A stretch of 64,000 nucleotides of DNA from Spirilliplanes yamanashiensis (GCF_016863475.1 NZ_BOOY01000009.1:1-64000); one strand, 5' to 3'; positions 23,378-57,379 are shown, counted from the first letter of the stretch. Translations and numbers: made by a program. The notes: generated by a model not told the origin, from the sequence alone.

Positions 23378-23463
23378 ATGAGACGGAAGGGAGTCTGCTG
23401 TACGGCTATGACATCCGGCAATACGTCAGAGTGCCGTTAAATCGACGCCGGTCGCTCCGACTG

Positions 23464-28485: not shown

Positions 28486-28938
28486 GTGACGCTCGCCCGC
28501 GGTCACCGCGTGTCAGGATCGGATCACACCTGCTGGAGGTACGCGTTGCCCATCGAGTCCCCGACGGCGAACGTCGCCCGGTTCTACGCCGAGGCGTGGA
28601 CCCAGCGCGACCCGTCCGCGGTCCGCCGGATCATCGCGCCGTGCGCCGAGATCGAGTGGAACCTCGACCTGCCCGTCGACGACGAGCAGCTCGTGCAGAC
28701 GCTCGACCGGCTCGCGGCGAGCGCCCGGTCGGTCGCGCTGGTGTCGGAGACGTACGCCGGCGAGCGGGCCACGATGCTGTACGACTGCGCCGGGGTGTTC
28801 GGCAGCGCCCGGGTGGCGGAGTTCCTGGTGGTCGCCGACGGCCGGATCACCGAGGTGCGCCAGGTGTGGGATCCGACGGCCGTGCGCCGCTACTTCCCGG
28901 ACCTGCTGGAGGACGTCAGCCCTCCCCCAGCCCCTTGA
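28486..28938 (+). CDS. SnoaL-like / NTF2-fold small protein
   Basis: The ~150-aa ORF has the (A)RFYAEAW...DP motif typical of the SnoaL/ketosteroid-isomerase-like fold. The start is uncertain. Confidence 0.45.
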   Translation: MTLARGHRVSGSDHTCWRYALPIESPTANVARFYAEAWTQRDPSAVRRIIAPCAEIEWNLDLPVDDEQLVQTLDRLAASARSVALVSETYAGERATMLYDCAGVFGSARVAEFLVVADGRITEVRQVWDPTAVRRYFPDLLEDVSPPPAP

Positions 28939-30541
28939 GCGGGGCGGCGGTCCAGCTCGCGGGCACGTTCCACTTCTGCGAGTCGGTGCCGTCGCAGGCG
29001 CGGGTCACGACCATCGGCCAGGCGTTGCTGACCTTCTGGATGTTGGGCACGCCGAAGCCGAGGGCCTGCAGGCAGACGTTCCCGCTGTTGTCCTGGATCT
29101 GGTAGGCCTCGCTGCCGTTCGGGTTGCGGCCGTAGAGGCGCCAGGTGGTGGCGGCGGTGACCTGGCCGGCGTTGCAGTCGACGACCCACGGGTACTCGTT
29201 GGGCGCGGGCGACAGGCTCAGGCAGTGCTTGATGCCCTTCTTCGGGTCGTTGTCGTTCTCGTCGGCGAGGTCGTTGGGCGTGATGGTGATGCGGGCCCGG
29301 TAGTACAGCGCGCCGGCGACCTGCTGCGCGGCCGGCAGCGGCTCGATCTTCCAGACGTGGTTCCAGTGCGGCACGCCGGAGAAGGCCTGCTTGCAGGGGT
29401 ACGTGATGAGCGCGGGCGTCGCCGTGCCGTACTGCCGGGCGCCCGTGACGTCGTCCTGCGGCAGGTCCAGGCAGTAGCCGACGTTGGCCCGGTTGACCAG
29501 CTGGTCGGAGTCCGGCCCGGCCGCGCCGGCGCCCATGCCCGCGTCGGGGAAGTAGCTGTGCTGCGAGCTGTTGGTCTTGCAGGCGTCGCCCATCTTGATC
29601 CGGCTCCCGACGGCGACGGCGCCCTCGTTGGTGAAGCACATCCCGTTCCACGAGGAGCCGTTGGTGGTGCCCTGGAACACGAATGCGTCGCTCTGGAAGG
29701 CCCACTGCTGGCTGGGGATCGTGGCCGCCGCGCAGGCCTGGAACATGACGTACGCGTTGAGCGCCGGGTTCGCGGTGAGGCACAGGCCGGCGGGCTCGAT
29801 GCGCAGGTTGAGGTTCTTCTGGTACGTGAACGTCAGCTGCCCGCGGGGAGTGCCGGCGCAGTCGACCAGCTTGACGTAGGCGCCCGCGACGGGCGGGTCG
29901 GTGTCGGAGCCGACGCACAGGTGGCCCGCGCCGCTGACCTGGATGCGGCCGCCGGGGATGTTCTCGTTGTTGCTGCCCATCGTGTACGTGGCGTGGAGCG
30001 ACCGGCCGGCCCCCTCGACCAGGCCGGTCGAGCGCAGCAGCGCCCAGCCGGGGACCGCGACGGTGCCCACCCCGCCGGTGCCGTCGCAGACGACGCGCTT
30101 GTTCCGGATGACGCCCGGATTGTCCTGGTAACCGGTCGGGTCGACCGCGTAGTAGTCGATCGTCATCGAGTAGCGCACGGCGGGCGTGGTGCCCGGGACC
30201 GTCCGGTCCGTGACGACGTAGCTGTGGTCCGCGTCGGTGTACTGGGCGACCGTCTTGGTGCTGGTGCAGGGCAGCTTGGCGATGTCACCGACGGGGTTGT
30301 TCTGGCTGTCGGTGCCCCCGGTCACGGCCGAGCGCAGCAGCGACAGCGCGGCGTCGAGGCCGGCCTGGGCGCTGCTGACGGAGACCTGGCGGCTGTTGAC
30401 CCGGCCGGAGGTCTTCACCTGCACGACGACGGTGCTGGACAGCAGCACGCTGAGCGCCAGGCCGACGACGGTCAGCAGCATGGCGAGCACCATGTTGCCC
30501 CGATCGTCCGAGTGGTCGCCCCACGCCGGCCGCTGCCGCAT
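28916..30541 (-). CDS. Membrane-anchored protein with ricin-B (beta-trefoil, QxW) lectin domains
   Basis: An N-terminal TM helix MVLAMLLTVVGLALSVLL is present. Repeated Cys pairs and QQW/QKW motifs (QQWAFQ, SQKWNV) occur. An SD-like GGAAGGGGG precedes the ATG at 30541. Confidence 0.6.
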   Translation of the reverse strand: MRQRPAWGDHSDDRGNMVLAMLLTVVGLALSVLLSSTVVVQVKTSGRVNSRQVSVSSAQAGLDAALSLLRSAVTGGTDSQNNPVGDIAKLPCTSTKTVAQYTDADHSYVVTDRTVPGTTPAVRYSMTIDYYAVDPTGYQDNPGVIRNKRVVCDGTGGVGTVAVPGWALLRSTGLVEGAGRSLHATYTMGSNNENIPGGRIQVSGAGHLCVGSDTDPPVAGAYVKLVDCAGTPRGQLTFTYQKNLNLRIEPAGLCLTANPALNAYVMFQACAAATIPSQQWAFQSDAFVFQGTTNGSSWNGMCFTNEGAVAVGSRIKMGDACKTNSSQHSYFPDAGMGAGAAGPDSDQLVNRANVGYCLDLPQDDVTGARQYGTATPALITYPCKQAFSGVPHWNHVWKIEPLPAAQQVAGALYYRARITITPNDLADENDNDPKKGIKHCLSLSPAPNEYPWVVDCNAGQVTAATTWRLYGRNPNGSEAYQIQDNSGNVCLQALGFGVPNIQKVSNAWPMVVTRACDGTDSQKWNVPASWTAAPLKGLGEG

Positions 30542-31008
30542 CCCGCCCCCTTCCGCCACACCAGGTGTCCTCCTATCGGCACGCCGGAGCGGATGCTGAG
30601 AAAACGCCCCGGGCATGACACCGGTCACAGCACTGCCGGGTGTCAATATGCGCTCGTCAGCGAATTGACGGTCCGATGTGGATCTCCCATTCACGTGACG
30701 GAAAGCTGACCTGACCACGCGGCGTATTCCCAACGGTGCACCGGGTCGTTAGCTTGTCCACTGTGGGACGACGCTTGAGGGATCAGGCGGGGGCATCGTG
30801 GCGCGCGGAGGTGGACGTGACCAGGGGTGATGTTCGGTCGGCGCCAGGCTGACCGGAGCGCGGCGGCGCCGCCGCCGGATGACACGCATTTTTCTTCACA
30901 TTTCCGCGTAACCGCTGGGCCATTCCGGCCGGCGGTAGGTCAGCGCGCGCATTTCCTTCCCGGGGCGGCCCCTCGGGAGCTCCGGCGCGCCCATTTCCGG
31001 GAGAGATC

Positions 31009-32973
31009 ATGAATCGTCGTCGCATTGTCGCCGCGGTCGTGGCCGCGGCCCTCGTGGCCACCGGCGCGGCGCCGGCCGCGGCCGACCCGACCGCGGACCC
31101 GCCCGCCGACCCGCGCGTGGACCTGGCGGTGCTGGTGGTCACCGACGGCGGCGCCGCCACCCAGGCCGTCGCCGCCCACCTGACCGCGCAGGGCGTGCCG
31201 CACCGCACCGTGCGCCTCGACGACCCGGGCCGCCCCGCCATCGACGCCGCCTTCCTGGCCGACGCCGACGGCGCGAACTTCCAGGGCGTCGTGCTGCCCA
31301 ACGCGAACCCGTTCGCCGACCAGGCCGAGCTGGCCGCGCTGCACGCGTTCGAGGCGCGGTACGGCGTCCGCCAGGTCGACGCGTACCTGTGGCCGACGCC
31401 GCAGGTCGGGCTCAACTACCCGGCGTACTCGGGGCCGCTCGACGGCACCACCGCCGCCGCCACCGCCGAGGGGCTGGCCGGGCCGTTCCGCTACCTGCGC
31501 GGGCACGTCCCGTTCGAGGACAACGACCCGGGCCTGTGGGAGAGCTACGGGTTCCTGGCGCAGCCGCTGGTGGACGCGCCGGACACGTTCACGCCGCTCG
31601 TCACCACGGTGGCCCCCGACGGCACGGCGGGCGTGCTGGCCGGCGTCTTCGGCAGCGGCGGGCGCGAGGAGCTGGCGGTGACGTTCGCGTACAACGCCGC
31701 CCAGCAGCAGTTCCGGCTGCTGGCGCCCGGCATGGTCGAGTGGCTCACCCGCGGCGTGCACCTCGGCCTGCACCGCAACCACCTGTCGGTGCACGTGGAC
31801 GACGTCTTCCTCGGCGACGCCCGCTGGCACACCGGCGGCAACTGCACCCCGGGTGAGGACTGCACCGGCGGGCAGACCACCGCCGACATCCGGATGACGG
31901 CGGACGACGTCGCGTACGCCGCGCAGTGGCAGGAGCGCTCCGGCTTCACGCTCGACCTGGTCTACAACGGCGCCGGCAGCGACGAGGCCGGCCCGGGCGA
32001 CCCGCTCACGGCCGCGCTGCTGGCGGCGCGCGACAGGTTCCGCTGGACGAACCACACCTACAGCCACGACTTCCTGGGCTGCGTCCAGGACACCACCGTC
32101 GTCCCGTGGCGGTGCGCGACCGGCCCGGACGGCGCCGTCCGCTACGCCACCGGGGCGCACATCGCCGACCAGGTCGCCCGCAACCGGGCGTGGGGCCTGG
32201 CCCGCGGCCTGCCGCTGGTCGAGGGAGAGCTGGTCACCGGCGAGCACTCTGGCCTGCGGGTGCTGCCCCAGCAGCCGGCGGACAACCCGGACCTGGCGCC
32301 CGCCCTGGACACCACCCAGGTCCGCTGGCTGGCCGCCGACAACTCGCGGCAGCCCGCCCAGCGGGCCGTCGGCGGGGCGCTGACCGTGCCCCGGCACCCG
32401 CTGAACGTCTTCTTCAACGTCGGCACCGCCGCCGAGGAGACCGACGAGTACAACTGGATCTACACCGCCCGCGCCGACGGCGGCAGCGGCGTCTGCGAGG
32501 ACAACCCGGCCACCGTCACCTGCGTGCCGCCGCTGGACCCCGCCACCGGGTACGCCGAGGTCATCGTGCCGCTGGAGACGCGGCTGGCGCTCGCCCGCAT
32601 CCTCGGCAACGACCCGCGGCCGCACTACGTGCACCAGTCGAACCTGGCCGAGGAGCGCATCCTCTACCCGCTGCTCGACAGCATCCTCGGCACGTACCGC
32701 TCGCTGCTGGCCGACAACACGCCCATCGTGTGCGCGCGGCTGGCCGACAGCGGCGCGGAGTTGCGGCGCCAGGCCCGGTGGGCGGACGCGGTGGCCGCCG
32801 GGACGGCGCACGCCTATTTGCAGGACGGCGTCGTGCACGTCACCGCGCCCGACGGCGTCGACGTGCCGCTGACCGTGCCCGAGGGCAGCACTGTGGACGG
32901 TGCCGCGTTCGGCACGGCGTACGCCGGATCGCGCTCGGCCTGGACGACCACCGCGCGGGTGTTCGTGCCGTGA
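31009..32973 (+). CDS. Secreted 654-aa protein, candidate metal-dependent polysaccharide deacetylase (PelA-DA / Agd3-like?)
   Basis: A signal peptide MNRRRIVAAVVAAALVATGAAPAAA is present. HVDDVF (Asp-Asp motif) and WTNHTYSHDF (H-x3-H) are spaced as in metal-dependent CE-type deacetylases. The gene sits directly upstream of the PelF-like GT with a 4-nt overlap. The functional call is inference. Confidence 0.5.
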   Translation: MNRRRIVAAVVAAALVATGAAPAAADPTADPPADPRVDLAVLVVTDGGAATQAVAAHLTAQGVPHRTVRLDDPGRPAIDAAFLADADGANFQGVVLPNANPFADQAELAALHAFEARYGVRQVDAYLWPTPQVGLNYPAYSGPLDGTTAAATAEGLAGPFRYLRGHVPFEDNDPGLWESYGFLAQPLVDAPDTFTPLVTTVAPDGTAGVLAGVFGSGGREELAVTFAYNAAQQQFRLLAPGMVEWLTRGVHLGLHRNHLSVHVDDVFLGDARWHTGGNCTPGEDCTGGQTTADIRMTADDVAYAAQWQERSGFTLDLVYNGAGSDEAGPGDPLTAALLAARDRFRWTNHTYSHDFLGCVQDTTVVPWRCATGPDGAVRYATGAHIADQVARNRAWGLARGLPLVEGELVTGEHSGLRVLPQQPADNPDLAPALDTTQVRWLAADNSRQPAQRAVGGALTVPRHPLNVFFNVGTAAEETDEYNWIYTARADGGSGVCEDNPATVTCVPPLDPATGYAEVIVPLETRLALARILGNDPRPHYVHQSNLAEERILYPLLDSILGTYRSLLADNTPIVCARLADSGAELRRQARWADAVAAGTAHAYLQDGVVHVTAPDGVDVPLTVPEGSTVDGAAFGTAYAGSRSAWTTTARVFVP

Positions 32974-34385
32974 GGGTCGCGATGGTCACGGAGGGCACCT
33001 ACCCGCAGGCGTTCGGGGGCGTCAGCGTGTGGTGTGACCAGCTCGTGCGCGGCCTGCCCCGGACCGACTTCGACGTGTACGCGATCAGCGTCACGGGCCG
33101 CGAGCCGGACGCGTGGGAGCTGCCCGACTCCGTGACCGTCCACCATGTACCGCTGTGGGGACCGGCGCCGCGGCAGTCGCGCCGGTCCACCGTGGACGTC
33201 GCCGACGCGCACCGGGCGCTGATCCGGTCGCTGCTGGCGCCGCCCGGCGAGGCCGAGCCCGCGTTCGCCGCGGCGCTCCGGCGGTTGTGCGAGCTGGCCC
33301 CCGCCCCGATGCCGGCGGGCGACGCGCCGGTGCGGTGGCTGCTGGACGCGTGGCGGGACAGCTCGCTCGCGTCCGAAGTGGACGTGCGCCCGTCGATCCT
33401 CGACGCACTGACCTGTGTGGACATCGTCGGGCACTGGCTGCGCCCGCTGCTGCGGCCGGCGCCCGTCGCCGACGTGTGCCACGCCGTCACCAACGGGCTG
33501 GCGGCGCTGCCGGCGCTGGCCGCGAAGTGGACCCGCGGCACCCCGCTGCTGCTCACCGAACACGGCGTCTACCTGCGGGAACGCTACCTGGGCCTGCGGG
33601 CGGCCGACAGCTCGTGGCCGGTCAAGGCGGTGCTCGTGGCGTTCCAGCGGCTGCTGTGCACGGCCGCGTACCGCGAGGCCGACCTCATCACCCCGGGCAA
33701 CCGGTACAACCACCGCTGGGAGACGCGGTTCGGCGCGTTGCCCGAGCGCATCCGCACCGTCTACAACGGAGTCGACCCGGCCGACTTCCCGCCCGCCGGC
33801 CGCGAACCCGCCGTGCCGACCATCACCTGGGCCGGTCGCGTCGACCCCATCAAGGACCTGGAGACGCTGATCCGGTCGTTCGCGCTGGTGCGCGAGCAGA
33901 TCCCGGACGCCCGGCTGCGCATCTTCGGCGGCACCCCGGCCGGCGCCCGCGGCTACCACGACCGGTGCGTGGCGCTGGCCGCCGAGCTGGGCGCCGCGGA
34001 CGCGGTGACGTTCGAGGGCCGGGTGGCGAACATCCGCGACGCGTACGCGGCCGGGCACGTCGTCGTGCTGTCCAGCATCTCGGAGGGTTTCCCGTACACC
34101 CTCATCGAGGCGATGACCTCGGGCCGGGCCACCGTGTCGACCGACGTGGGCGGGGTCGCCGAGGCGGTCGCCGACACCGGCTTCGTGGTGCCGCCGCGGG
34201 ACCCGGCCGCCATGGCGGAGCGGTGCGTCACGCTGCTGCGCGACGAGCTGCTGCGGCACCGGCTGGGCGCGGCCGCCCGCGACCGGGCGCTGCAGAACTT
34301 CACCGTCGACCAGGCCGTGGACGCGTTCGACGAGATCTACGCCGACCTGGCCGGGCTCGCCGCGGCGCCGGCGGTGGCGGCGTGA
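32970..34385 (+). CDS. GT4 glycosyltransferase with PelF-type N-terminal extension
   Basis: The N-terminus VRVAMVTEGTYPQAFGGVSVWCDQLVRGLP resembles the PelF/DUF3492 opening. A C-terminal GT4 EX7E-like region SEGFPYTLIEAMTSGRATVSTDVGG is present. Confidence 0.75.
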   Translation: MRVAMVTEGTYPQAFGGVSVWCDQLVRGLPRTDFDVYAISVTGREPDAWELPDSVTVHHVPLWGPAPRQSRRSTVDVADAHRALIRSLLAPPGEAEPAFAAALRRLCELAPAPMPAGDAPVRWLLDAWRDSSLASEVDVRPSILDALTCVDIVGHWLRPLLRPAPVADVCHAVTNGLAALPALAAKWTRGTPLLLTEHGVYLRERYLGLRAADSSWPVKAVLVAFQRLLCTAAYREADLITPGNRYNHRWETRFGALPERIRTVYNGVDPADFPPAGREPAVPTITWAGRVDPIKDLETLIRSFALVREQIPDARLRIFGGTPAGARGYHDRCVALAAELGAADAVTFEGRVANIRDAYAAGHVVVLSSISEGFPYTLIEAMTSGRATVSTDVGGVAEAVADTGFVVPPRDPAAMAERCVTLLRDELLRHRLGAAARDRALQNFTVDQAVDAFDEIYADLAGLAAAPAVAA

Positions 34386-35734
34386 GCGCGTACCCCGAGC
34401 TGTCCCGGCGCATGGCGCCGGTCTGCGCCGAGGCGGTCGACGACATGGAGGTCGCCGCGGTCCTGGAGTCCGACGGCGTCACCGACGCGACCGCGGACCG
34501 GCTGTACGGCTCCCCCGACGTGTTCCACCTGGCCCGGCGGCTGCGGGCCGACCACCCGCGCCGGCCGTCCGCCGTGCCGCCCGCCCCCGGCCCGTGGCGC
34601 GCCCAGCCGTGGCGGCACCTGCTGCGCGGTGTCCTGTTCGGACTGCCCGCGGTGTGCTACCTCGCGGTCAGCGGGGTCGCGGCGGGCCGGCGGGCCGGCG
34701 TCGTGCTCGTCGTGTCCGTCCTGCTGTCGTGGGCGGCGAGCCAGGCGCTCGCGTACCTCGGGCACGTGCGGCTCGGCTGGGGCGACCGCGACGGCGCGGC
34801 CCGCGTGCTGCGCGGCGGGCTGCTCGGCCTCGGCGCGGCCGTGCTCGCGGCGACGGCGGCGACCGCGGCCGCGCTGCACGTCCCGGCGCCGGTGACGCTC
34901 GTCGCCGCCGCGCAGGTCACCTACCTGCTGGCCGCCACCGTGGCGCTGGTGCTCGGCGCGGAGTGGCTGCTGGTGGCCGCGCTGGCCCCGGGCGTGGGCG
35001 CCGCCGTGACCGGGGTGCTGCTCGGCGGCGACGCGGTGCGCTCGGCGCCCGTGGTGTGCGGGGCCGTCGGCACCGTGCTCGCCTCCGTCGCGGCGGCGCT
35101 GTGGGTGACCCGCGGCGCCCGGCCCGGCCCGCCCACCCGGGCCGAGCTGCGCGACGCCCTGCCGCACGCCGCGTTCGGGCTGTGCGTCGCCGGGCTGCTG
35201 CTGTTCGTGCCCGCCGCCCGCACCCTGCCGCCGCCCGGCGTGGTGGACGGCGGCCCGGGCGGCGCCGCCGCCGGGCTGGCCGCGCTCGTGCCGCTGTCGG
35301 TCAGCATGGGCGTCGCCGAGTGGCTGCTCGTGCGGTACCGGGCCGACACCCACCGCTGGCTGCAACGCGCCGTGACGCTGCGCCAGTTCGCGGCGCGCGC
35401 CTCGCTGGCGCTGGCCCGCGGCACCGCCGTCTACCTCGCCGTCCTGGTCGCCGGGGTCGCCGCGGGCGCGCTGCTGGTCACCCGGGCCGCCCCCGCCGCC
35501 CTGGCCGGATACGTCGCCCTCGGCGCGGCCCTGTTCGTCGCGCTGCTGCTCATGACGTTCCGGGTGCGCGGGCCCGTCGTCGCCGGGGCCGCCGCCGCGC
35601 TCGCCGCCGACGCCGCGCTGCTCACCGCCCACCCCGATCCCGACCGGGTCCAGCTGATCACCGCGGGCGCCCTGTTCCTGGGCCTGGCCGCGTACGCCTC
35701 GGTCGCGCTGTCCCGCGCGCACCGCCACCTGTAG
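34382..35734 (+). CDS. Polytopic membrane protein, PelG-like (putative polysaccharide exporter)
   Basis: The ~450-aa ORF has ~10-12 predicted TM helices. Its GTG start overlaps the GT stop (GTGA). Its position after the PelF-like gene mirrors pelF-pelG. Confidence 0.6.
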   Translation: MSAYPELSRRMAPVCAEAVDDMEVAAVLESDGVTDATADRLYGSPDVFHLARRLRADHPRRPSAVPPAPGPWRAQPWRHLLRGVLFGLPAVCYLAVSGVAAGRRAGVVLVVSVLLSWAASQALAYLGHVRLGWGDRDGAARVLRGGLLGLGAAVLAATAATAAALHVPAPVTLVAAAQVTYLLAATVALVLGAEWLLVAALAPGVGAAVTGVLLGGDAVRSAPVVCGAVGTVLASVAAALWVTRGARPGPPTRAELRDALPHAAFGLCVAGLLLFVPAARTLPPPGVVDGGPGGAAAGLAALVPLSVSMGVAEWLLVRYRADTHRWLQRAVTLRQFAARASLALARGTAVYLAVLVAGVAAGALLVTRAAPAALAGYVALGAALFVALLLMTFRVRGPVVAGAAAALAADAALLTAHPDPDRVQLITAGALFLGLAAYASVALSRAHRHL

Positions 35735-35748
35735 AGAGAGGGAACGCC

Positions 35749-36741
35749 ATGACAACGGTCGCCGTCACCGGTGCCGAGGGCTTCATCGGCTCGCACCTGA
35801 CCGAGCGCCTGGTCGCCGCGGGCCACCGCGTCCGCGCGATGGTGCAGTACAACTCGTTCGACACCCGCGGCTGGCTGGACACCCTCGGCGCCGACGTGCT
35901 CGCCGACGTCGACGTGGTGGCCGGCGACGTCGAGGACCCGGCCACCGTCGCGCAGCTCGTCGAGGGCGCCGAGGTCGTCTACCACCTGGCCGCGCTCATC
36001 GCGATCCCGCACTCCTACCGGGCGCCGCGCTCGTACGTGAACACCAACGTCATCGGCACCCTCAACGTGCTGGAGGTGGTGCGCGCGGGCGGGGCCGGGC
36101 GGCTCGTGCACACCTCCACGTCGGAGACGTACGGCACCGCGCGCACCGTGCCGATCCGCGAGGACCACCCGCTGCAGGCGCAGTCGCCGTACGCCGCCAG
36201 CAAGGTCGCCGCCGACAAGCTGGTCGAGAGCTACCACCTCAGCTTCGGGGTGCCCGCGGTGACGCTGCGCCCGTTCAACACGTTCGGCCCCCGGCAGTCG
36301 GCGCGGGCCGTCATCCCGACCGTGGTCAGCCAGCTCGCGGCCGGCGCGGCCGAGATCCGGCTCGGCGCCCTCGACCCGACCCGCGACTTCACGTTCGTGC
36401 AGGACACCGCCGCCGCGTTCCACGCCGTCGGCACCGCGCCCGCCGACGTGGTGGTCGGCGAGACGTTCAACGCGGGCACCGGCGACGAGATCTCCATCGG
36501 CGCCCTGGCCGCCACCATCGGCGAGCTGATGGGCCGGCCGGTGCCGGTGCGCCCGCAGGACGACCGGCTGCGCCCGGCGAACTCCGAGGTCATGCGGCTG
36601 GTCTGCGACAGCCGCAAGCTGCGCGCCGCCACCGGCTGGGCGCCGCTGTTCGACCTGGCCGACGGCCTCAAGCACACCATCGACTGGTTCCTCGACCCGG
36701 CCAACCTGGCCCGCTACCGCACCGACGGGTACGTCCTCTAA
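35749..36741 (+). CDS. NAD-dependent sugar-nucleotide epimerase/dehydratase (extended SDR)
   Basis: A Rossmann motif VTGAEGFIGSHL and a YAASKVAAD (YxxxK) motif are present. A strong SD GAGAGAGGG lies upstream. Confidence 0.85.
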   Translation: MTTVAVTGAEGFIGSHLTERLVAAGHRVRAMVQYNSFDTRGWLDTLGADVLADVDVVAGDVEDPATVAQLVEGAEVVYHLAALIAIPHSYRAPRSYVNTNVIGTLNVLEVVRAGGAGRLVHTSTSETYGTARTVPIREDHPLQAQSPYAASKVAADKLVESYHLSFGVPAVTLRPFNTFGPRQSARAVIPTVVSQLAAGAAEIRLGALDPTRDFTFVQDTAAAFHAVGTAPADVVVGETFNAGTGDEISIGALAATIGELMGRPVPVRPQDDRLRPANSEVMRLVCDSRKLRAATGWAPLFDLADGLKHTIDWFLDPANLARYRTDGYVL

Positions 36742-36756
36742 CCGAAGGGAACTGCC

Positions 36757-37479
36757 ATGCACGCGGTCATCCTCGCCGGCGGCAAGGGGGTGCGGCTGCG
36801 GCCGTACACCACGTCCCTGCCCAAACCGCTGGTCCCGATCGGGGACCGGTACTCCATCCTCGAGATCATCATGCGGCAGCTGGCGGGCTGCGGCTTCCGC
36901 ACCGCCACCCTCGCCATCGGCCACCTCGGGCACCTCATCCGCGCGTACGTGGGCGACGGCTCCCAGTGGGGCCTGGAGCGGGTCGACTACCAGTCGGAGG
37001 ACTCGCCGCTCGGCACGATCGGGCCGCTGCTGGCCATGCGGGACAGGCTGCCGGAGACGTTCCTCGTGATGAACGGCGACGTGCTCACCGACCTCGACTA
37101 CGGCGACCTGCTCAAGCGGCACGTCGGCTCGGGCGCGGCGCTGACCGTGGCGACCTACCCGCGCCAGGTGAAGATCGACTTCGGGGTCCTCACCAGCAGC
37201 GGCGGGCGCATCGTCGACTTCGTCGAGAAGCCCACCATCGACTACCACGTCAGCATGGGCGTCTACGGGATGTCCGCGTCCGCCCTCGGTCACTACACGC
37301 CCGGCCTGCCGCTCGGCTTCGACGAGCTGGTCCTCGACCTGCTCGCCACCGGCTCCGGCCCGGACGAGTACCGCTTCGACGGCCGCTGGCTCGACATCGG
37401 CCGCCCCGACGACTACGACCGGGCGAACGCCGAGTTCGAGCTGCTCGGCCCCCTGCTGCTGCGGCAGCCGGCGCCGTGA
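36757..37479 (+). CDS. Sugar-phosphate nucleotidyltransferase (NDP-sugar pyrophosphorylase)
   Basis: ILAGGKGVRLRPYT..PKPLVPI is the canonical nucleotidyltransferase signature. Confidence 0.85.
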   Translation: MHAVILAGGKGVRLRPYTTSLPKPLVPIGDRYSILEIIMRQLAGCGFRTATLAIGHLGHLIRAYVGDGSQWGLERVDYQSEDSPLGTIGPLLAMRDRLPETFLVMNGDVLTDLDYGDLLKRHVGSGAALTVATYPRQVKIDFGVLTSSGGRIVDFVEKPTIDYHVSMGVYGMSASALGHYTPGLPLGFDELVLDLLATGSGPDEYRFDGRWLDIGRPDDYDRANAEFELLGPLLLRQPAP

Positions 37480-38345
37480 GGATCGTGCTGTTCGGCGGCG
37501 CCGGCTTCCTCGGCCGGCACGTCGCCGCGGCGCTGACCGGCCACGACGTGGTCGCGCCGGCGCGGTCCGCCGTCGACCTGACGGCCGGGCCGGAGGCGAT
37601 CGCGGGGCTGCTGCGCGGCGCGGACGCGATCGTCAACTGCGCCGGTGTCACGACGGGCCCGGCGGCGGGGCTGGCCGCCGGGAACGTCGTGGCCGTGGCG
37701 CACCTGCTCACCGCGTGGGAACGCGCCGAGCCGGGCGCCCGGCTCGTCCACCTGGGCTCGGCCGCCGAGTACGGCGCGGCCGCGCCGGGCCGCCCGGTGG
37801 CCGAGACCGACGAGCCGGAACCCGTCTCCGCGTACGGGCACAGCAAGCTCGCCGGCACCGCCCTGGTGGCGGCGGCGCACCGGCGCGGCCTGCCCGCGAC
37901 CGTGCTGCGGGTGTTCAACCCGCTCGGCCCGGGCACCCCGGCGGCGCTGCTGCCCGGGCGGCTCGTGGCCGGCCTGCGGGCCGCCGCGGACGGCGGCCCG
38001 CCCGCGACGACGGGCCCGCTGGACGGCCACCGCGACTTCGTGGACGCCCGCGACGTCGCGGCGGCCGTGCGCACCGCCGCGACCGCCCGCGCCCCGCTGC
38101 CCGCCCTGCTCAACGTGGGCAGCGGCCGCGCCACCGCCCTGCGCGACCTGGCCGGGCTGGCGGCGGCGCTGGCCGAGCAGCCCCCGCCCGCCGAGCTGGG
38201 CGGCGGGTCGGCCCGGTCGGCGGCCGTGACGTGGCAGCAGGCCGACCTGGCCCGGGTCACGGCGGCGCTGGGCTGGCGCCCCCGCGTGCCGCTGGCGCAG
38301 TCGCTGCGCGACATGGGCCTCGGCGTCCGGGCCGCGGTGCCGTGA
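37476..38345 (+). CDS. NAD(P)-dependent epimerase/reductase (SDR, RmlD-like size)
   Basis: VLFGGAGFLGRHV and SAYGHSKLAG (YxxxK) are present. The gene is 289 aa and overlaps the upstream stop by 4 nt. Confidence 0.7.
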   Translation: MRIVLFGGAGFLGRHVAAALTGHDVVAPARSAVDLTAGPEAIAGLLRGADAIVNCAGVTTGPAAGLAAGNVVAVAHLLTAWERAEPGARLVHLGSAAEYGAAAPGRPVAETDEPEPVSAYGHSKLAGTALVAAAHRRGLPATVLRVFNPLGPGTPAALLPGRLVAGLRAAADGGPPATTGPLDGHRDFVDARDVAAAVRTAATARAPLPALLNVGSGRATALRDLAGLAAALAEQPPPAELGGGSARSAAVTWQQADLARVTAALGWRPRVPLAQSLRDMGLGVRAAVP

Positions 38346-38998
38346 CCGGCGGCGTGACCGGCGGTGTGGTGGTGCCCGCCTACTTCCACCCGGCCGTGGC
38401 CGCCGGGGCGTGGCGGGCGCTGGCCGCGGCGGGCGACGCCGTGCGCGCGGTCGTGTTCAACGTGGACAGCGGGCCCGGCGCCGCCCCCGAGCGGGAACTG
38501 CTCGCCGTGGCGGCCCGGCTGCGGGTGCCCGTGCTCGGCTACGTCGACGCCGGCTACGGCGCCCGGCCCGCCGCCGACGTCGTCGCGGACCTCGCCCGGC
38601 ACCGCGCCTGGTACCCGGTCACCGGCGTCTTCCTCGACCGGGTGCCCGCCGGCCCCGCCCACCTGTCGCACTGCGCCGCGCTCGCCGCCGCCGCCCGCCG
38701 GCACGGCCTGCCCCAGGTCGTCTTCAACCACGGCGTCCACCCGCACCACGGCTACGCGGCCCTCGCCGACGCCCTCGTCACCTTCGAGGGCCCGGCCACC
38801 GCGCACCGCGACGTCGCCGCCCCCCGCTGGGTCCGCGACCACCCGGCCGCGATGTTCTGGCACCTCGTCCACGACTGCCCGCCGGACGAGGCCGCCGCCG
38901 TGCGCACCCGCGCCGCGGCCCACCACGCGGGCATGGTCTACGCCACCGACCGGCGGGGGGTGAACCCGTGGGACGGGCTGCCCTCGTGGCCGCTGTGA
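38342..38998 (+). CDS. Spherulin-4 family protein (GH135 / Sph3-like putative glycoside hydrolase)
   Basis: VVVPAYFHPAVAAGAW...VVFNVDSGPG...LGYVDAGYGARP...GVFLDR match the family-defining motifs of spherulation-specific family 4. Confidence 0.6.
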   Translation: MTGGVTGGVVVPAYFHPAVAAGAWRALAAAGDAVRAVVFNVDSGPGAAPERELLAVAARLRVPVLGYVDAGYGARPAADVVADLARHRAWYPVTGVFLDRVPAGPAHLSHCAALAAAARRHGLPQVVFNHGVHPHHGYAALADALVTFEGPATAHRDVAAPRWVRDHPAAMFWHLVHDCPPDEAAAVRTRAAAHHAGMVYATDRRGVNPWDGLPSWPL

Positions 38999-39753
38999 CC
39001 CTCGCCCTCGGCGGCTGCCAGCCCCCGCCCGCGCCCCCGCCGCCACCCGCGGGCCGCTGGGCTCCGGCCCCCGGCACCACCTGGCAGTGGCAGCTCACCG
39101 GCGCCGTCGACGTCACCGTCGACGCCGCCGTGTTCGACGTCGACGGCTTCACCACGCCCGCCGCCACCGTCCGCGAGCTGCACGCCCGCGGCCGCAAGGT
39201 CATCTGCTACATCTCCGTCGGCTCCGCCGAGGACTTCCGCCCCGACGCCCACCGCTGGCCCCCCGCCGTGCTCGGCAGACCCCTGCCCGGCTGGCCCGGC
39301 GAACGCTGGCTCGACATCCGCGACCCCGAACGGCTCGCCCCGGTCCTGCGCCCCCGCCTCGACATGTGCCGCGACAAGGGCTTCGACGGCGTCGAGCCGG
39401 ACATCATGGACGCCTACCGCCACGACACCGGCTTCCCTCTCACCGCCGCCCACCAGCTCGCCTTCAACCGCTGGATCGCCCGCGAGGCCCACGCCCGCGG
39501 CCTGGCCGCCGGCCTGAAGAACGACCTCGACCAGGTGCCCGCCCTGGTCGCCGACTTCGACTTCGCGGTCAACGAGGAGTGCGCCGCCTACGCCGAGTGC
39601 GCCGCCCTGACCCCGTTCGTGGCCGCCGGCAAGGCCGTCTTCCACGCCGAGTACGACCTCGACCCGGCCGCCTACTGCCCGGCGACGACCCGGCTGGGGC
39701 TCAGCTCGATCCGCAAGGACCGTGACCTGGGCCCCCGGCTGCGGCGCTGCTGA
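38968..39753 (+). CDS. GH114 family endo-alpha-1,4-polygalactosaminidase-like lipoprotein (PelA-hydrolase / Ega3-like)
   Basis: A lipobox-like LALGGC precedes RKVICYISVGSAEDFRPD and FDGVEPDIMD (GH114 catalytic region pattern). Confidence 0.75.
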   Translation: MGRAALVAAVTLALGGCQPPPAPPPPPAGRWAPAPGTTWQWQLTGAVDVTVDAAVFDVDGFTTPAATVRELHARGRKVICYISVGSAEDFRPDAHRWPPAVLGRPLPGWPGERWLDIRDPERLAPVLRPRLDMCRDKGFDGVEPDIMDAYRHDTGFPLTAAHQLAFNRWIAREAHARGLAAGLKNDLDQVPALVADFDFAVNEECAAYAECAALTPFVAAGKAVFHAEYDLDPAAYCPATTRLGLSSIRKDRDLGPRLRRC

Positions 39754-39780
39754 CCCGCCCGCCCGCGGTCGCCTAGTACG

Positions 39781-40686
39781 GTGCTGACCGTGGAATACGT
39801 TCCCTTCGACCAGCGCACGCCCGACCCGCAGTACCACTCCCTGCTCGCGCGGGTGCTGTCCGACGGGGAGGAGGTGCCCACCCGGCAGGGTCCGGCCGCG
39901 TACACGCTCATGCAGCAGGCGATGCGGTTCGACCTGGCCAACGGGTTCCCCGTGATCACGAACCGCAGCATCCGGTCGTTCTGGCGCAAGCCGATCGGGG
40001 AGCTGTGCGCGTTCATCAACGGGGCCACCACGCTCGCCGAGCTGGAGAAGTTCGGCTGCGACTGGTGGGGGGCCTGGGCGACCGAGGCGAAGACGAGCAA
40101 GCGCGGCTTGCCGCCCGGCGACATCGGGCCCGGCTCGTACGGTGGGGCGTTCCACGACTTCCCGACGAGCGAGGGGCCGGGCTTCGACCAGTTCGCGCAC
40201 CTCGTGGAGCAGATCCGGGAGCTGCCGGGCGACCGGACGCACTTCGTGTCGCCGTGGATCCCGCAGTACCAGGTGCGCGGCGCGGGCAAGACGCCGCGGA
40301 CGACGATCGCGCCGTGTCACGGGTGGGTGCACGTGCGGGTCATCCGGGGGCGGCTGCACCTGCACATGTTCCAGCGCTCCGGTGACCTGCCGGTCGGCGT
40401 GCCGTCCAACATGATCCAGTACGCGGCGCTGCTGCTGATGCTCGAGCACCTGACCGGCTACCCGGCGGCGACGTATTACCACACGATCTCCGACGCCCAC
40501 ATCTACGCCGACCAGGCCGACGCGGTGCGTGAGCTGCTGACCCGGCCCGCGCTGCGGCTGCCCACCGTGCACCTGAACGACGCGGGGCGGGCGGTGACGG
40601 ACATCCACGACTTCCGCGCCGAGCACTTCGATCTCAGCGACTACGAGCCGCACCCGTCGATGCCGCGGATCCCGGTGGCGCCGTGA
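39781..40686 (+). CDS. thyA: Thymidylate synthase (ThyA family, divergent with ~30-aa insertion)
   Basis: RFDLANGFPVITNR, IAPCHGWVHV, MFQRSGDLPVGVPSN (Asn of PFN retained) and HFDLSDYEPHPSMPRIPVA are all present. Confidence 0.85.
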   Translation: MLTVEYVPFDQRTPDPQYHSLLARVLSDGEEVPTRQGPAAYTLMQQAMRFDLANGFPVITNRSIRSFWRKPIGELCAFINGATTLAELEKFGCDWWGAWATEAKTSKRGLPPGDIGPGSYGGAFHDFPTSEGPGFDQFAHLVEQIRELPGDRTHFVSPWIPQYQVRGAGKTPRTTIAPCHGWVHVRVIRGRLHLHMFQRSGDLPVGVPSNMIQYAALLLMLEHLTGYPAATYYHTISDAHIYADQADAVRELLTRPALRLPTVHLNDAGRAVTDIHDFRAEHFDLSDYEPHPSMPRIPVAP

Positions 40687-41210
40687 GCTGGGAGAACGTG
40701 TCGACGTCGCTGATCGTGGCGGCGGACGAGGTGGACCTGATCGGGCGGTCCGACGGCAGCCTGCCGTGGCACCTGCCGTCGGACATGCGGCACTTCCAGC
40801 AGCTCACGAACGGGCACGTGGTGGTCGCGGGGCGGCTCACCCACGACTCGATCATGGCGAAGCTGGGGCGGCCGCTGCCGGGCCGGTTCACGGTGGTGGT
40901 CACCCGGCGGACGGGGCTGCCGCCGGTACCGGGGGTGACGTACCAGCCGGACATCGCGTCGGCGATGACGACGGCGCGCGGCATCGAGGGGTTCGCCGGC
41001 CGGCGTCAGCTGTTCGTCATCGGCGGGGCGCAGGTGTACGCACAGGCGCTGCCGTTCGTCGACCGGGTGTTCCTGACCCGGGTGCACACCCACGCCCACG
41101 GCGACGTGCACATGCCGGAGGGCTGGCTGGACGCGTTCCGGCTGGTCAAGGCGGAGAAGAGCGACGCCGACCAGATCGCCGTCACCTACTCGGAGTACGT
41201 CCGGTCCTGA
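40683..41210 (+). CDS. folA: Dihydrofolate reductase
   Basis: LIVAADEVDLIGRSDGSLPWHLPSDMRHFQQLT and VVAGRLTHDS match the DHFR pattern. The gene overlaps the thyA stop by 4 nt. Confidence 0.85.
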   Translation: MSWENVSTSLIVAADEVDLIGRSDGSLPWHLPSDMRHFQQLTNGHVVVAGRLTHDSIMAKLGRPLPGRFTVVVTRRTGLPPVPGVTYQPDIASAMTTARGIEGFAGRRQLFVIGGAQVYAQALPFVDRVFLTRVHTHAHGDVHMPEGWLDAFRLVKAEKSDADQIAVTYSEYVRS

Positions 41211-41641
41211 TGTCCTTCTACCACCTGGAGAACTCGCGCAGCGAGGAGCAGACCGCGGAGATGCGGCGGCTCGACGCGGCGGGGGTGTGCCTGTTCTGCC
41301 CCGGGCACCTGGAGGCGAACCAGGAGGTCCTGCACCGGGCGGCGCACTGGGCGGTCACGCCGAACCGGTTCCCGTACCCGAACGCGGCGCGGCACCTGCT
41401 GCTGGTGCCGGACGCGCACGTGACGGGCATGACGCAGCTCGCGCCCGCGGCCCGGCTCGGCTTCTTCACCGCCCTGGAGTGGGTGGAGGCGCAGTTCGGC
41501 CTGGTGCACTACGGCGTCGGGGTGCGCAACGGCGACTCGCCGCTGACCGGTTCGACCATCCGGCACCTGCACGTGCACGTGATCGTGGGCGACCTGGGCG
41601 GCGAACCGGTGCGGTTCAGGATGAGCCGGCCACCCAGATGA
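41210..41641 (+). CDS. HIT-superfamily nucleotide hydrolase/transferase
   Basis: A CLFCPGH Zn-like motif and the histidine triad HLHVHVI are present. The ATG overlaps the folA stop (ATGA). Confidence 0.6.
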   Translation: MSFYHLENSRSEEQTAEMRRLDAAGVCLFCPGHLEANQEVLHRAAHWAVTPNRFPYPNAARHLLLVPDAHVTGMTQLAPAARLGFFTALEWVEAQFGLVHYGVGVRNGDSPLTGSTIRHLHVHVIVGDLGGEPVRFRMSRPPR

Positions 41642-42443
41642 GTTCGACGCCGGCCTCGCGCAGCACGCGGTCGCCGTCGAGCATCGCGTACGGCCCGGCG
41701 ACGTAGCAGCGCCGGAACCCGGCGGCGGCCACCAGCCGGGCGCAGGCCGGGCACGGGAACGTCGTCACGTACAGGTCGGCGCCGGCCAGGCTGCGGCCCT
41801 CGCGGGCGGCGTCGGCGACGATGCCGGCCTCGGCGTGCAGGGCGGTGGACAGGTCCCAGCGCAGGCCGCGGCTGTACTCGTTGCGCGGGTCGCCGTCGGC
41901 GTACGGGGCGTACTCGGTGGGCTGGTGGGTGTTGTGGGCGACCGCGATGACCTCGCCGTCGCGGGCGGCGACGGCGCCGACCTGCCGCCACCAGTCGGAG
42001 CTGCGCGCCGCCTCGGCGGTGGCGCGGCCCATGAGCAGGCGGGACAGGTCGTCGGCGGCGACCTCGCCGTCGAAGCCGGCGGGGCGGGCGGCCTGCGCCC
42101 AGGCGCGGTCCCAGCGCAGGAACGTGGGCTCGTACACGGCGGTGAGCCCGTACCGCTGGACGACCCGGCGCATGAGGTCTTCGTCGGGGACGATGAGGGT
42201 CTGCGCGGTGACCGCCGCGGGCAGGTCGCCGCGCTCGACGACGCGGGCCTTCGCGCGGCCGGCGGCGACGAGGTAGTGCGCGGCCCGCTCGGGGTCGAGG
42301 GCGCGGATCTCCTTGGTGAGCGCCTTCTCCTCGGCGGCGAAGCTGCGCCCGAGCAGCAGCACCTCGGCGCCCGGGTGCCGGTCGAACAGCGCCTCGTAGC
42401 CGGCGTGCAGCACCGGAAGGTACAGCAGGAGCTGCTCAGTCAC
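41616..42443 (-). CDS. Two-domain protein with C-terminal CMP/dCMP-type cytidine-deaminase zinc-binding domain
   Basis: HAEAGIVADAARE and PCPACARLV carry the H(A)E and PCxxC zinc ligands. An N-terminal ~110 aa is of unknown function. Confidence 0.7.
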   Translation of the reverse strand: MTEQLLLYLPVLHAGYEALFDRHPGAEVLLLGRSFAAEEKALTKEIRALDPERAAHYLVAAGRAKARVVERGDLPAAVTAQTLIVPDEDLMRRVVQRYGLTAVYEPTFLRWDRAWAQAARPAGFDGEVAADDLSRLLMGRATAEAARSSDWWRQVGAVAARDGEVIAVAHNTHQPTEYAPYADGDPRNEYSRGLRWDLSTALHAEAGIVADAAREGRSLAGADLYVTTFPCPACARLVAAAGFRRCYVAGPYAMLDGDRVLREAGVELIWVAGSS

Positions 42444-43944: not shown

Positions 43945-43995
43945 CGTTTCGGAGGGGTGGGCGGCCCGTCCTATCAGGACGATAGGGTGGCGGCC

Positions 43996-44499
43996 ATGAT
44001 CGAAGCGTCATCGGGGCATCGCCGTGAGTATTCGGCAACGAGGGCGCTGCACCGCCGCCCGCCGGAGCGCCCGAACCAGGCGGCCATGGCCCAGGTGCAG
44101 CGCACCGCGGCCGCGGTGGCCGACGAGCCCGCCGCCCTGGCCGAGCGGTTCTACCACCACCTGTTCCAGCTGGCCCCGGGGGTGCGCGACATGTTCCCGG
44201 CGGACATGACGGCGCAGAACGACCGGCTGGCCGGCGCACTGTTCGACGCGGTGCGGGCCCTGGTCGACGACCCGGAGCGCCGCGCCCCGCGCATGGAGGC
44301 GCACCTGCACCGGCTGGGCGCCGACCACGCCCACCGGTACGCGGTGCGGCCGGAGCACTACCCGTTCGTGGGGCACGCGCTGGTGCGCGCGGTGCAGGAC
44401 GTGTCCGGCGACTGGTCGGCGTCGACCAGCTCGGCCTGGCTGTGGGTGTACGAGTGGATGAGCAGCCACATGATGAGCGCCGCGCACGACGTCCGATAA
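43996..44499 (+). CDS. Single-domain globin (Hmp N-terminal-like)
   Basis: FYHHLFQLAPGVRDMF and the later HA..HxxxxV helices resemble bacterial globins. The start is uncertain. Confidence 0.5.
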   Translation: MIEASSGHRREYSATRALHRRPPERPNQAAMAQVQRTAAAVADEPAALAERFYHHLFQLAPGVRDMFPADMTAQNDRLAGALFDAVRALVDDPERRAPRMEAHLHRLGADHAHRYAVRPEHYPFVGHALVRAVQDVSGDWSASTSSAWLWVYEWMSSHMMSAAHDVR

Positions 44500-44713
44500 G
44501 GACGTTTATGAACATAAGGGACGAATGCCGCGCAAGATCGTTCCGCGGCGCGGGTACGCCGACCGGGCGCGCGGGTCCTCTGTGCACCCGTCCACACCCG
44601 ACGGATGATCATGCGCGCGAGTCACGATCGACCGCCCTCGAATGAGTGAGCGGTTTCGTGGCGAACTGGCTACCGAGAGGTAACCTTTAACCCGATCCGG
44701 GGTTGAGGGGGCC

Positions 44714-47809: not shown

Positions 47810-49156
47810 TCAGCCGCGACGCCACTTCTGGTTGGCGCCGCCGACGCACGTCCACAGGTGCAGCAGCGCGCCGTTGTTGCCGTTCCACTCGGCGATGTCG
47901 ACGCACTTGTTCGCCATCGGGTTCACCAGGTCACCGGCCGCGCTGAGGACGAACTGCTGGGCCTGGTGGCCGTTGCAGGTGGCCAGCTGGATGGGCGTGC
48001 CGTCCGCGGTGGCCGCGCCGGCGACGTCCATGCACAGGTTGTTCTGGCTGCGCAGCGTGCCGCCGACGAACTCGAACGCCTGGCTGGTGATGTCCAGGCA
48101 GTCCCACACGTGCAGGCGCTGGCCGGGCGCGTAGTTCCAGTTGGGCACGTCGATGCACTTGCCGTTCCAGTTGCTGATCAGCCGGTTGCCGCTGCCGGCG
48201 GGCGGCGGGTTGCCCGGGGTGCCGGGCGTGCAGCCGTTGTCGCCGGTGACGTTGTCGGTGTGCGTGGTGCCGGCCGACCGGAACGCGTTCACCTGGGCGG
48301 TGGCCTGCGCCGGGCTGAGCACCTGCTTCTTGGCGTGGAACACGTAGTCGACGTGCTGGTGCCACACGCTGGTGCCGCCGGAGTGCCCGGTCAGGTCGAT
48401 GAACCACTGGTTGAAGTCGATCGACATGTTCTGCCGGGGGTAGAACTTGCCGCCGTGCGTGCCGACGAGCTGGCCGTCGATGTAGTACTTGATCTCGCCG
48501 TTCGCGACGGTGGCCATCACGTCGCGCCAGCCGGCGATGCTGCGGTTCTGCTTGCTGTACTGCCGGTCCTGCACCCACGGGTCGGCCTGGTACGTGTACC
48601 AGGACGTCTGGAAGTTGGTCGGGCCGCTCTCGCCCCAGCCGCCGTTGGGCAGGTACTCGGAGAAGTCCAGCTCGCTGTAGATCGGGTCGAACGCGTAGCG
48701 CAGCGGGCTGATCGTGTAGAAGGTCTGGTTCACGATGTCGCCGTCGGCGCCGGACACGGGCGTGTCGGCGAACTTGATCCGCGCGAAGTAGGTGCCCTCG
48801 AAGAAGCGCCGGTCCGACAGTGAGAACTCGGCGTGGCTGGTGCCGGCGGCCGTGCCGTTGGTGCTGGCCTGCAGGCGGGCCACCTTCTGGCCGTCCACGG
48901 TCGGGAACGAGATGTTGCCCGCCGACCAGGTCGCGCCCGGCACGCCGGGGCCGCCCTGGTTGCCGCGCAGGTGCCAGCCGCGCTGGGCGAGTGCGGGGTC
49001 GGCGTTCGAGCCGTAGGTGAAGTCGTCGAACAGCACGCCGCAGGCGACCGCGGCGCTGGAGGGCTGGGCCGCGACGATGCCGACGGCGGTGAGGGCGGCG
49101 GTCACGGCGACGGCGCCGGCGGCGAGCACCGTCCGGCGGAGCAGAGAGCGTTTCAT
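47810..49156 (-). CDS. Secreted GH16 family glycoside hydrolase with C-terminal ricin-B/CBM13 lectin domain
   Basis: A signal peptide, an ExDxxE-type motif SELDFSEY, and a C-terminal Cys-rich beta-trefoil with QQF/QKW motifs are present. Confidence 0.75.
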   Translation of the reverse strand: MKRSLLRRTVLAAGAVAVTAALTAVGIVAAQPSSAAVACGVLFDDFTYGSNADPALAQRGWHLRGNQGGPGVPGATWSAGNISFPTVDGQKVARLQASTNGTAAGTSHAEFSLSDRRFFEGTYFARIKFADTPVSGADGDIVNQTFYTISPLRYAFDPIYSELDFSEYLPNGGWGESGPTNFQTSWYTYQADPWVQDRQYSKQNRSIAGWRDVMATVANGEIKYYIDGQLVGTHGGKFYPRQNMSIDFNQWFIDLTGHSGGTSVWHQHVDYVFHAKKQVLSPAQATAQVNAFRSAGTTHTDNVTGDNGCTPGTPGNPPPAGSGNRLISNWNGKCIDVPNWNYAPGQRLHVWDCLDITSQAFEFVGGTLRSQNNLCMDVAGAATADGTPIQLATCNGHQAQQFVLSAAGDLVNPMANKCVDIAEWNGNNGALLHLWTCVGGANQKWRRG

Positions 49157-57333: not shown

Positions 57334-57379
57334 CGATCTCCTCGTATCGAGCATCAACGACTTAGGATAGCCTTCCCTC

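Follow-up and report, generated by a model that had tools for sequence, protein, structure and literature searches.

The closest described relatives of the locus presented here are the bacterial agd3 operons, the bacterial Pel systems (pelABCDEFG in Pseudomonas aeruginosa, pelDEADAFG in Bacillus cereus) and the galactosaminogalactan (GAG) cluster of Aspergillus fumigatus (uge3, gtb3, sph3, ega3 and agd3). Bamford et al. (2020, Nat Commun 11:2450, PMC7229062) reported 45 agd3-carrying bacterial species, and their Supplementary Data 2 contains an Actinoplanes sp. SE50/110 entry with the architecture discussed below, next to a short form and a Deinococcus form. Here, we describe an operon of this kind from Spirilliplanes yamanashiensis (Micromonosporaceae), located at positions 31009-39753 of a 64,000-nt stretch of DNA (the window). 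By analogy with these systems we take it, with moderate confidence, to be a self-contained, synthase-dependent exopolysaccharide operon of the bacterial 'agd3 operon' type, related to Pel and to fungal GAG. In the genes it contains and in their arrangement, it matches the Actinoplanes sp. SE50/110 entry exactly, with no architectural difference, and its membrane protein g3 is 49% identical to the homologue ACWT_0237 of Actinoplanes sp. SE50, likewise a member of the Micromonosporaceae. The locus is a further member of a catalogued, experimentally uncharacterized operon class and not an unusual hybrid.

The window has a G+C content of ~75%, which renders raw open reading frame lists uninformative, and gene models were built from third-position GC (GC3) frame plots combined with inspection of start codons. 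Eight genes on the + strand (g1-g8) fill 31009-39753 exactly, and the same eight were called independently in assembly GCA_030811375.1 of this species. The initial annotation had counted nine co-oriented, mostly overlapping genes; orientation and overlaps hold, while the ninth gene in line is thyA (at 39781), which is unrelated to the operon. Five of the seven junctions (g1/g2, g2/g3, g5/g6, g6/g7 and g7/g8) are 4-nt overlaps of the GTGA type and the other two (g3/g4 and g4/g5) are gaps of 14-15 nt, an arrangement from which the eight genes appear to be translationally coupled. Export signals are confined to the two ends of the operon, a Sec signal in g1 and a conserved lipobox in g8, with none in g2 or g4-g7.

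The first gene, g1 (31009-32973, 654 aa), encodes a predicted secreted, Agd3-like (CE18 + CBM87) polysaccharide de-N-acetylase. An N-terminal signal peptide is predicted, phmmer matches the protein to Agd3 (PDB 6nwz) at an E value of 3.8e-7, and an AlphaFold2 model (pLDDT 83) has Agd3 6nwz as its best Foldseek match (E 4.4e-29, TM score 0.69). This match covers the full length and conforms to the three-domain plan of Agd3, with CBM87, CE and β-rich C-terminal domains; the next matches are human NDST1 deacetylase domains. In Agd3, the catalytic base and metal triad comprise D377, D378, H510 and H514, and the catalytic acid is H668 (PMC7229062). These correspond to D264-D265, H349/H353 and H542 of g1, all five of which are invariant in 80 orthologues. 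Motifs CM1 (DD), CM2 (HxxxH) and CM4 (H) are present, and for the CM3 arginine there are candidates only (R447 or R462). The Pfam model CBM87_Agd3 stays below its cutoff on g1 (17.5 vs 27.6 bits), as do the Pfam Agd3 models, which are matched by 5-7 of the 17 homologues scanned. Together, the signal peptide, the Agd3 match and the invariant catalytic residues bear out an earlier reading of g1 as a secreted candidate deacetylase.

Polymerization would fall to g2 (32970-34385, 471 aa), a cytoplasmic glycosyltransferase with Pfam DUF3492 (4.7e-45) and GT1 domains, an EX7E motif and no transmembrane (TM) segment. It scores 148.8 bits against the NCBIfam PelF equivalog NF038011 (cutoff 100) and is ~29% identical to proteobacterial PelF over its full length, in agreement with its prior assignment as a PelF-type GT4. 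The adjoining g3 (34382-35734, 450 aa) had been taken for a PelG-type multi-TM protein. It indeed has ~12 TM segments and a MOP/MATE fold, besides a conserved cytosolic four-helix N-terminal domain of ~60 aa, but by sequence it does not belong to the PelG family. Neither PelG (PF16933) nor any other Pfam or NCBIfam model matches g3 or 37 homologues, and when the g3 family profile is compared by hhalign with PelG of a canonical Paraburkholderia pel operon, or with a 14-sequence PelG alignment, the probability is 0.06% in both cases. On these sequence grounds, we reject g3 as a PelG family member and keep it only in the same fold class, the MOP/MATE fold being all that the two have in common. 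By analogy, g3 probably works like PelG, as the presumed exporter partner of PelF. Its family comprises 1,288 representative clusters (at E ≤ 1e-3) with no Pfam model, and includes the TM protein adjoining pelF in Deinococcus (hhalign 99.8%); in addition, one 974-aa protein consists of a PelF module fused to a g3-family protein.

The last two genes encode hydrolase-family proteins. The product of g7 (38342-38998, 218 aa) matches Pfam Spherulin4 (1e-28) and Sph3 (PDB 5c5g, 1e-6), and its D99/E149 pair, equivalent to Sph3 D166/E222, is invariant in 67 orthologues, in line with its first description as a spherulin-4/GH135-like protein. At the position of Sph3 E167, g7 and its orthologues have R or Q. 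In fungi, Sph3 is anchored to the membrane and its domain lies outside the cytoplasm. For g7 and every orthologue examined, signal peptides and TM segments are absent, as expected from a homologous barrel that begins at the first residues. The product of g8 (38968-39753, 261 aa, with alternative starts at 38986 and 38995) is a GH114, Ega3-like lipoprotein of the endo-α-1,4-galactosaminidase type. It matches Pfam Glyco_hydro_114 at 1.2e-85 and Ega3 (PDB 6oj1) at 3.1e-56 across the whole catalytic domain, with ~50% identity. Ega3 uses D189 as nucleophile and E247 as acid/base (PMC12054363), and the equivalent D145/E203 of g8 are invariant in 54 orthologues. Its signal peptide carries the lipobox LGGC, a lipobox being present in 48 of the 54 orthologues, and the designation as a GH114-like lipoprotein stands. 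A 2025 study was unable to produce soluble GH114 enzymes of bacterial origin, one from Streptomyces among them.

Between these synthesis and modification genes lies a nucleotide-sugar module of two short-chain dehydrogenases/reductases (SDRs) flanking a nucleotidyltransferase, the genes labeled 'Epi, GTA, Epi' by Bamford et al. (PMC7229062). Both SDRs match Pfam Epimerase/GDP_Man_Dehyd. The first, g4 (35749-36741, 330 aa), had been regarded as a PelX-type epimerase and resembles instead LegB, an NDP-HexNAc 4,6-dehydratase-type SDR. Against the NCBIfam LegB model TIGR04180 it scores 430.8 bits (E 2e-129; cutoff 475), compared with 136 bits for the GalE model. It is colinear with and 48% identical to Campylobacter jejuni LegB, with which it shares HTSTSE[VT]YGT and YxxxK, and it is 54-61% identical to LegB-type proteins encoded beside LegC, DegT or NeuB genes in Azospirillum, Chelatococcus and Rhizobium. 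Its T-S-E motif is invariant in 60 orthologues, whereas PelX has S-A-A at this position and GalE from a canonical pel operon, only 27% identical to g4, has S-A-T. The glutamate of this motif is the general base of 4,6-dehydratases (T-D-E in RmlB, T-S-E in GMD). On the active-site motif and these identities, we reject g4 as a PelX/GalE epimerase. LegB enzymes are GDP-GlcNAc-specific 4,6-dehydratases, and PtmE, which accompanies them, is a GlcN-1-P guanylyltransferase with specificity for GTP (PMC5378307).

Next in the module, g5 (36757-37479, 240 aa) is a sugar-1-phosphate nucleotidyltransferase, as already noted for this gene (Pfam NTP_transferase, 1.3e-32), with UTP-glucose-1-P uridylyltransferase and mannose-1-P guanylyltransferases as its best PDB and NCBIfam relatives. 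Homologues of g5 adjoin g4-like dehydratases in legionaminic-acid-type and aminotransferase clusters, and relatives of g4 and g5 elsewhere always stand beside enzymes of 4-keto-6-deoxy intermediates (LegC, DegT and NeuB-type clusters). On a plasmid of Rhizobium sp. WYJ-E13 (9001-11525), g4/g5 homologues occur as a mobile SDR-nucleotidyltransferase-SDR module within a Wzm/Wzt cluster with DegT, NeuB and CMP-transferase; on Chelatococcus daeguensis pTAD1, they share a PEP-CTERM/XrtA polysaccharide cluster with a DegT aminotransferase. The third gene, g6 (37476-38345, 289 aa), is the second SDR of earlier reading (Pfam Epimerase, 9.6e-34), a short extended SDR that is likely an NDP-4-keto-6-deoxy-sugar 4-reductase. 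Its best PDB matches are GDP-6-deoxy-D-lyxo-4-hexulose reductase 2pk3 (1.2e-18) and GDP-6-deoxy-D-mannose reductase 6x3b; the Ser-Tyr-Lys triad is kept (S95, YxxxK) and the dehydratase Asp/Glu is absent. The simplest reading of the module would be activation followed by 4,6-dehydration and 4-reduction, giving N-acetyl-D-quinovosamine (D-QuiNAc) or N-acetyl-D-fucosamine (D-FucNAc, 6-deoxy-GalNAc).

Set beside Pel, the locus has in common a DUF3492 PelF-type GT4 followed by a gene for a 12-TM protein, and an expected product that is a partly de-N-acetylated, cationic amino-sugar polymer. It differs in lacking PelA (GH166 + CE4), PelB, PelC, PelD and PelE. Among the eight proteins and their neighbors in the window, we found no domains of PelE or of the cyclic di-GMP (c-di-GMP) receptor PelD; the bifunctional GH166/CE4 PelA type is not present at the locus, which has separate GH114, GH135 and CE18-like proteins instead. 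Furthermore, the membrane partner comes from another sequence family than PelG, deacetylation is of the CE18 and not the CE4 type, and the first SDR is LegB-like rather than PelX or GalE. Canonical pel operons carry GalE, and some are accompanied by GH114 genes. With the fungal GAG cluster, the locus shares all three extracytoplasmic enzyme families, with catalytic residues kept apart from the R or Q of g7 and its orthologues at Sph3 E167. Its synthase, in contrast, is PelF plus a MOP-fold protein and not the large Gtb3, with the soluble GT4 g2 as sole glycosyltransferase; no epimerase of the Uge3 type is present, the GH135 protein is not anchored in the membrane, and the GH114 protein is a lipoprotein. 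The opening steps of the GDP-legionaminic acid pathway of C. jejuni (PtmE, LegB) provide the third comparison, through the LegB likeness of g4 and the relatedness of g5 to nucleotidyltransferases of Leg clusters. The Leg-cluster nucleotidyltransferase has an N-terminal extension of ~130 aa that g5 lacks, and the locus encodes neither a LegC aminotransferase nor a NeuB-type synthase or CMP-transferase. With the reductase-type g6 in their place, the pathway would stop at a 6-deoxy-HexNAc. The initial annotation's combination of Pel-type synthesis parts with separate GAG-type hydrolases is sound in outline (a PelF GT4 and a multi-TM partner with Agd3/CE18, Sph3/GH135 and Ega3/GH114 families): profile searches support GH114, GH135 and PelF and fail to support PelG, and the locus was not found to belong to a conserved cell-wall glycan pathway with known product.

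Where that annotation regarded the combination as unusual, the distribution speaks otherwise. A genome scan places g1 relatives in at least 595 species, and in a comparison sample of 80 loci from Streptomyces, Streptosporangiaceae, Spirillospora, Actinoallomurus and Actinomadura, all eight genes are found in identical order in 44, most of the others being broken by contig ends. Carriers are mostly sporulating, mycelial actinomycetes. The operon is also present on a linear plasmid of Streptomyces californicus, and plasmids of Deinococcus carry a re-ordered operon with the same SDR-nucleotidyltransferase-SDR trio linked to pelF; a 716-aa Deinococcus protein passes the Pfam Agd3 cutoffs. The same modules are seen in Deinococcus, Thermus and Kocuria, which are non-mycelial. 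The exopolysaccharide clusters of Actinoplanes missouriensis (imp, wps and gsf) are Wzx/Wzy or GtrA systems and unrelated.

A compact short form, g1-g2-g3-(g7)-(g8) with nothing replacing g4-g6, makes up 11 of the 80 loci. For PelF, identity stands at 0.83 among long-form loci, at 0.75 among short-form loci and at 0.63 across the two forms, which divides the proteins into two similarity groups; we rely on these identity statistics because midpoint-rooted neighbor-joining trees give no clean short/long split. Short-form and long-form GH114 proteins are 69% identical. Streptomyces sp. NPDC012935 has both forms in one genome (contigs NZ_JBIBBC010000017.1 and NZ_JBIBBC010000019.1), which suggests two paralogous systems that may differ in product or regulation. 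In other Streptomyces, the short form presumably draws its donor from housekeeping metabolism, for instance UDP-GalNAc (GalNAc, N-acetylgalactosamine).

By homology at every step, the operon could work as follows. In the cytoplasm, g5, with g4 as 4,6-dehydratase and g6 as 4-reductase, would make a dedicated nucleotide sugar, most likely a GDP-linked 2-acetamido-2,6-dideoxyhexose (D-FucNAc or D-QuiNAc). Jointly with its 12-TM partner g3, g2 would polymerize this donor on the cytoplasmic face of the membrane, and g3 would move the chain out. Outside the cell, the secreted, Agd3-like metallo-deacetylase g1 may strip some of the N-acetyl groups, resulting in a cationic, adhesive polymer whose de-acetylated stretches would be trimmed by the membrane-anchored g8. 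The GH135 protein g7 would act on the acetylated chain and, without an export signal, probably does so inside the cytoplasmic membrane or else reaches the exterior in some other way. As first proposed, a cationic Pel/GAG-like polymer is the likely product. Support for an exopolysaccharide operon comes from the family and catalytic-residue matches gene by gene, the apparent translational coupling, the order kept in the long-form loci and flanks that are not conserved, and from the linkage of the SDR-nucleotidyltransferase-SDR trio to pelF in the Deinococcus and S. californicus plasmids. The LegB likeness of g4, the occurrence of g4/g5 relatives in 4-keto-6-deoxy clusters and the reductase relatives of g6 point the same way, as do export signals that fit the proposed topology and the single PelF-g3 fusion. 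For the long form, which is carried by many Streptomyces, Micromonosporaceae, Streptosporangiaceae and Deinococcus, we tentatively propose, in place of GalNAc-based Pel/GAG, a previously undescribed matrix polysaccharide with GDP-derived D-FucNAc or D-QuiNAc, partly deacetylated by a CE18 enzyme, exported by a MOP-fold protein unrelated in sequence to PelG, and served by a GH135 protein on the cytoplasmic side.

Several observations weigh against the scheme set out above. The LegB score of g4 is below the equivalog cutoff and the locus is without LegC or NeuB genes, so that the substrate of g4 and its nucleotide (GDP or UDP) are matters of inference. In addition to reductases, g6 matches the 4-epimerases PelX and MoeE5, and a role as an epimerase is possible. 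We know of no precedent for a cytoplasmic GH135 protein, and the PelF-g3 fusion is a single case that could be a frameshift or a gene-calling artefact at the 4-nt overlap. In the literature on Streptomyces and Actinoplanes, we found no experimental study of this cluster type. Finally, the identity of g8 to Ega3 and that between short-form and long-form GH114 proteins fit a common backbone of galactosamine (GalN) and GalNAc more easily than a 6-deoxy one. The same machinery may instead make an ordinary α-1,4-linked GalNAc/GalN product of the Pel/GAG type, with g5 making UDP-GlcNAc and g4, g6 or both acting as UDP-GlcNAc 4-epimerases. Ega3 and Sph3, which g8 and g7 resemble, act specifically on GalN/GalNAc polymers; short-form loci dispense with g4-g6 and have very similar GH114 proteins; g4 and g6 both match PelX (6wj9/6wjb, at 1e-34 and 1e-17); GalE is found in canonical pel operons; and the reading agrees both with the labels of Bamford et al. 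and with the earlier interpretation of this DNA. It has to contend with the dehydratase/decarboxylase-type T-S-E of g4, absent from PelX and GalE, and with the closeness of g4 to LegB rather than GalE, with a pair of active SDRs and a nucleotidyltransferase that exceed the needs of one epimerization, and with the 4-keto-6-deoxy pathways in which relatives of g4 and g5 are found, and we consider it rather unlikely. As to the product itself, for which the conserved LegB-like module favors a 6-deoxy sugar and the closely Ega3-like g8 and the existence of the short form favor GalN/GalNAc, a 6-deoxy polymer is a possibility that we put forward with some doubt, plain GalNAc is somewhat less probable still, and mixed or other products account for the rest.

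The destination of the polymer is a separate matter, and a product attached to the cell wall, or specific to development (the spore or sporangium surface of filamentous actinomycetes), is compatible with an exopolysaccharide operon as proposed here. The sporulating, mycelial habit of most carriers, the reported galactosamine in Streptomyces walls (cited in PMC7229062) and a locus without a c-di-GMP receptor would suit such a glycopolymer better than a free biofilm matrix, but Pfam and NCBIfam scans reveal no LCP-type ligase or wall-anchoring gene in the operon and the same modules occur in the non-mycelial genera named above, which leaves it improbable. Far less probable again is a catabolic or antagonistic locus that makes no polymer and whose Agd3-, GH114- and GH135-type enzymes attack fungal GAG or foreign Pel, an idea that gains something from an endo-galactosaminidase activity in cultures of Streptomyces griseus, cited by both PMC7229062 and PMC12054363. 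We discard such a catabolic or anti-fungal role because the hydrolase genes are apparently coupled in translation to those for the PelF glycosyltransferase and the MOP-fold exporter and to the three nucleotide-sugar genes; moreover, g7 carries no signal for export, g8 is anchored to the membrane as a lipoprotein instead of being freely secreted, and no genes for sugar uptake or catabolism are present at the locus.

Upstream of g1, a leader of ~470 nt (30542-31008) extends to a divergent ricin-B lectin gene and, by its position, is presumed to be the promoter region. GC3 gives no coding frame in it, Rfam matches no family in the leader or elsewhere in the window, and no sigma-70 or intrinsic-terminator consensus is found across 30300-41800. 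Downstream, thyA is followed by folA and a gene for a HIT protein. Flanks are not conserved at the 80 sampled loci, and none of the neighbors qualifies as an operon member: genes for a WecB-type epimerase, a SnoaL-like protein, the ricin-B lectin, ThyA, FolA, and HIT, APH, globin and GGDEF proteins are all unlinked to the operon in other genomes. The window encodes two ricin-B lectin-domain proteins (28916-30541 and 47810-49234, both on the - strand), the former being the one divergent from g1 and not kept beside the operon elsewhere; binding of Gal/GalNAc is common among ricin-B domains. About 4 kb downstream of the operon, which has no PelD-type receptor, a globin-domain reading frame is directly followed by a GGDEF diguanylate cyclase (43945-46309, +), a pair that resembles a globin-coupled c-di-GMP synthase and is unlinked at the other 80 loci.

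Other parts of the window hold unrelated features. A giant RHS/YD-repeat gene at 12638-23425 (-; 3,596 codons from stop to stop, called product 3,571 aa) has DUF6531, Laminin_G and TEN_YD-shell domains and resembles a polymorphic toxin; its G+C content of 0.63-0.71, against ~0.72-0.78 in most other parts of the window, suggests horizontal acquisition. At 366-4127 (-), a 1,253-aa protein combines an N-terminal TIR domain (TIR_2/ThsB-like) with WD40 β-propellers, an architecture reminiscent of anti-phage or NAD-depleting defense proteins. The adjacent 4163-11684 (-; stop-to-stop coordinates that overlap and do not mark true gene starts) encodes a large protein that matches DUF3686 ('ATPase involved in DNA repair', 729.7 bits) and also has DUF7902 and AAA domains, then an SPFH/Band-7 protein and a small protein without a family match (a 201-aa frame, 11079-11684); beside the TIR protein, this group may be a defense or repair module. 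Further along are an ABC transporter that joins two FHA domains at its N terminus to ATPase and ABC-2 permease domains in a single protein (49274-51646, +) and a stand-alone, nonribosomal peptide synthetase-like protein of adenylation-thiolation-thioesterase (A-T-TE) type (57371-59848, +). At the window edge (62573-64000, -), a Bac_transf polyprenyl-phosphate sugar transferase probably marks where another glycan cluster, unrelated to the first, begins.

To the catalog of Bamford et al., this analysis adds that the 'TM' protein has a MOP/MATE fold and is not PelG, that the first 'Epi' is LegB-like, that the GH135 protein has no export signal, and that the distribution extends well beyond the bacterial species listed there. 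With the g3 family, PelF would have another type of membrane partner besides PelG, and the LegB-like module poses the biochemical question whether the polymer is Pel/GAG in a 6-deoxy version. No other bacterial locus corresponds as clearly to the enzyme set of fungal GAG, and the operon is as such relevant to the proposal that the GAG cluster came from bacteria. It is present in hundreds of Streptomyces and related species, where a polymer that is cationic and adhesive could influence how hyphae aggregate and form pellets during industrial fermentation, how they adhere to soil and roots, and how they interact with fungi.

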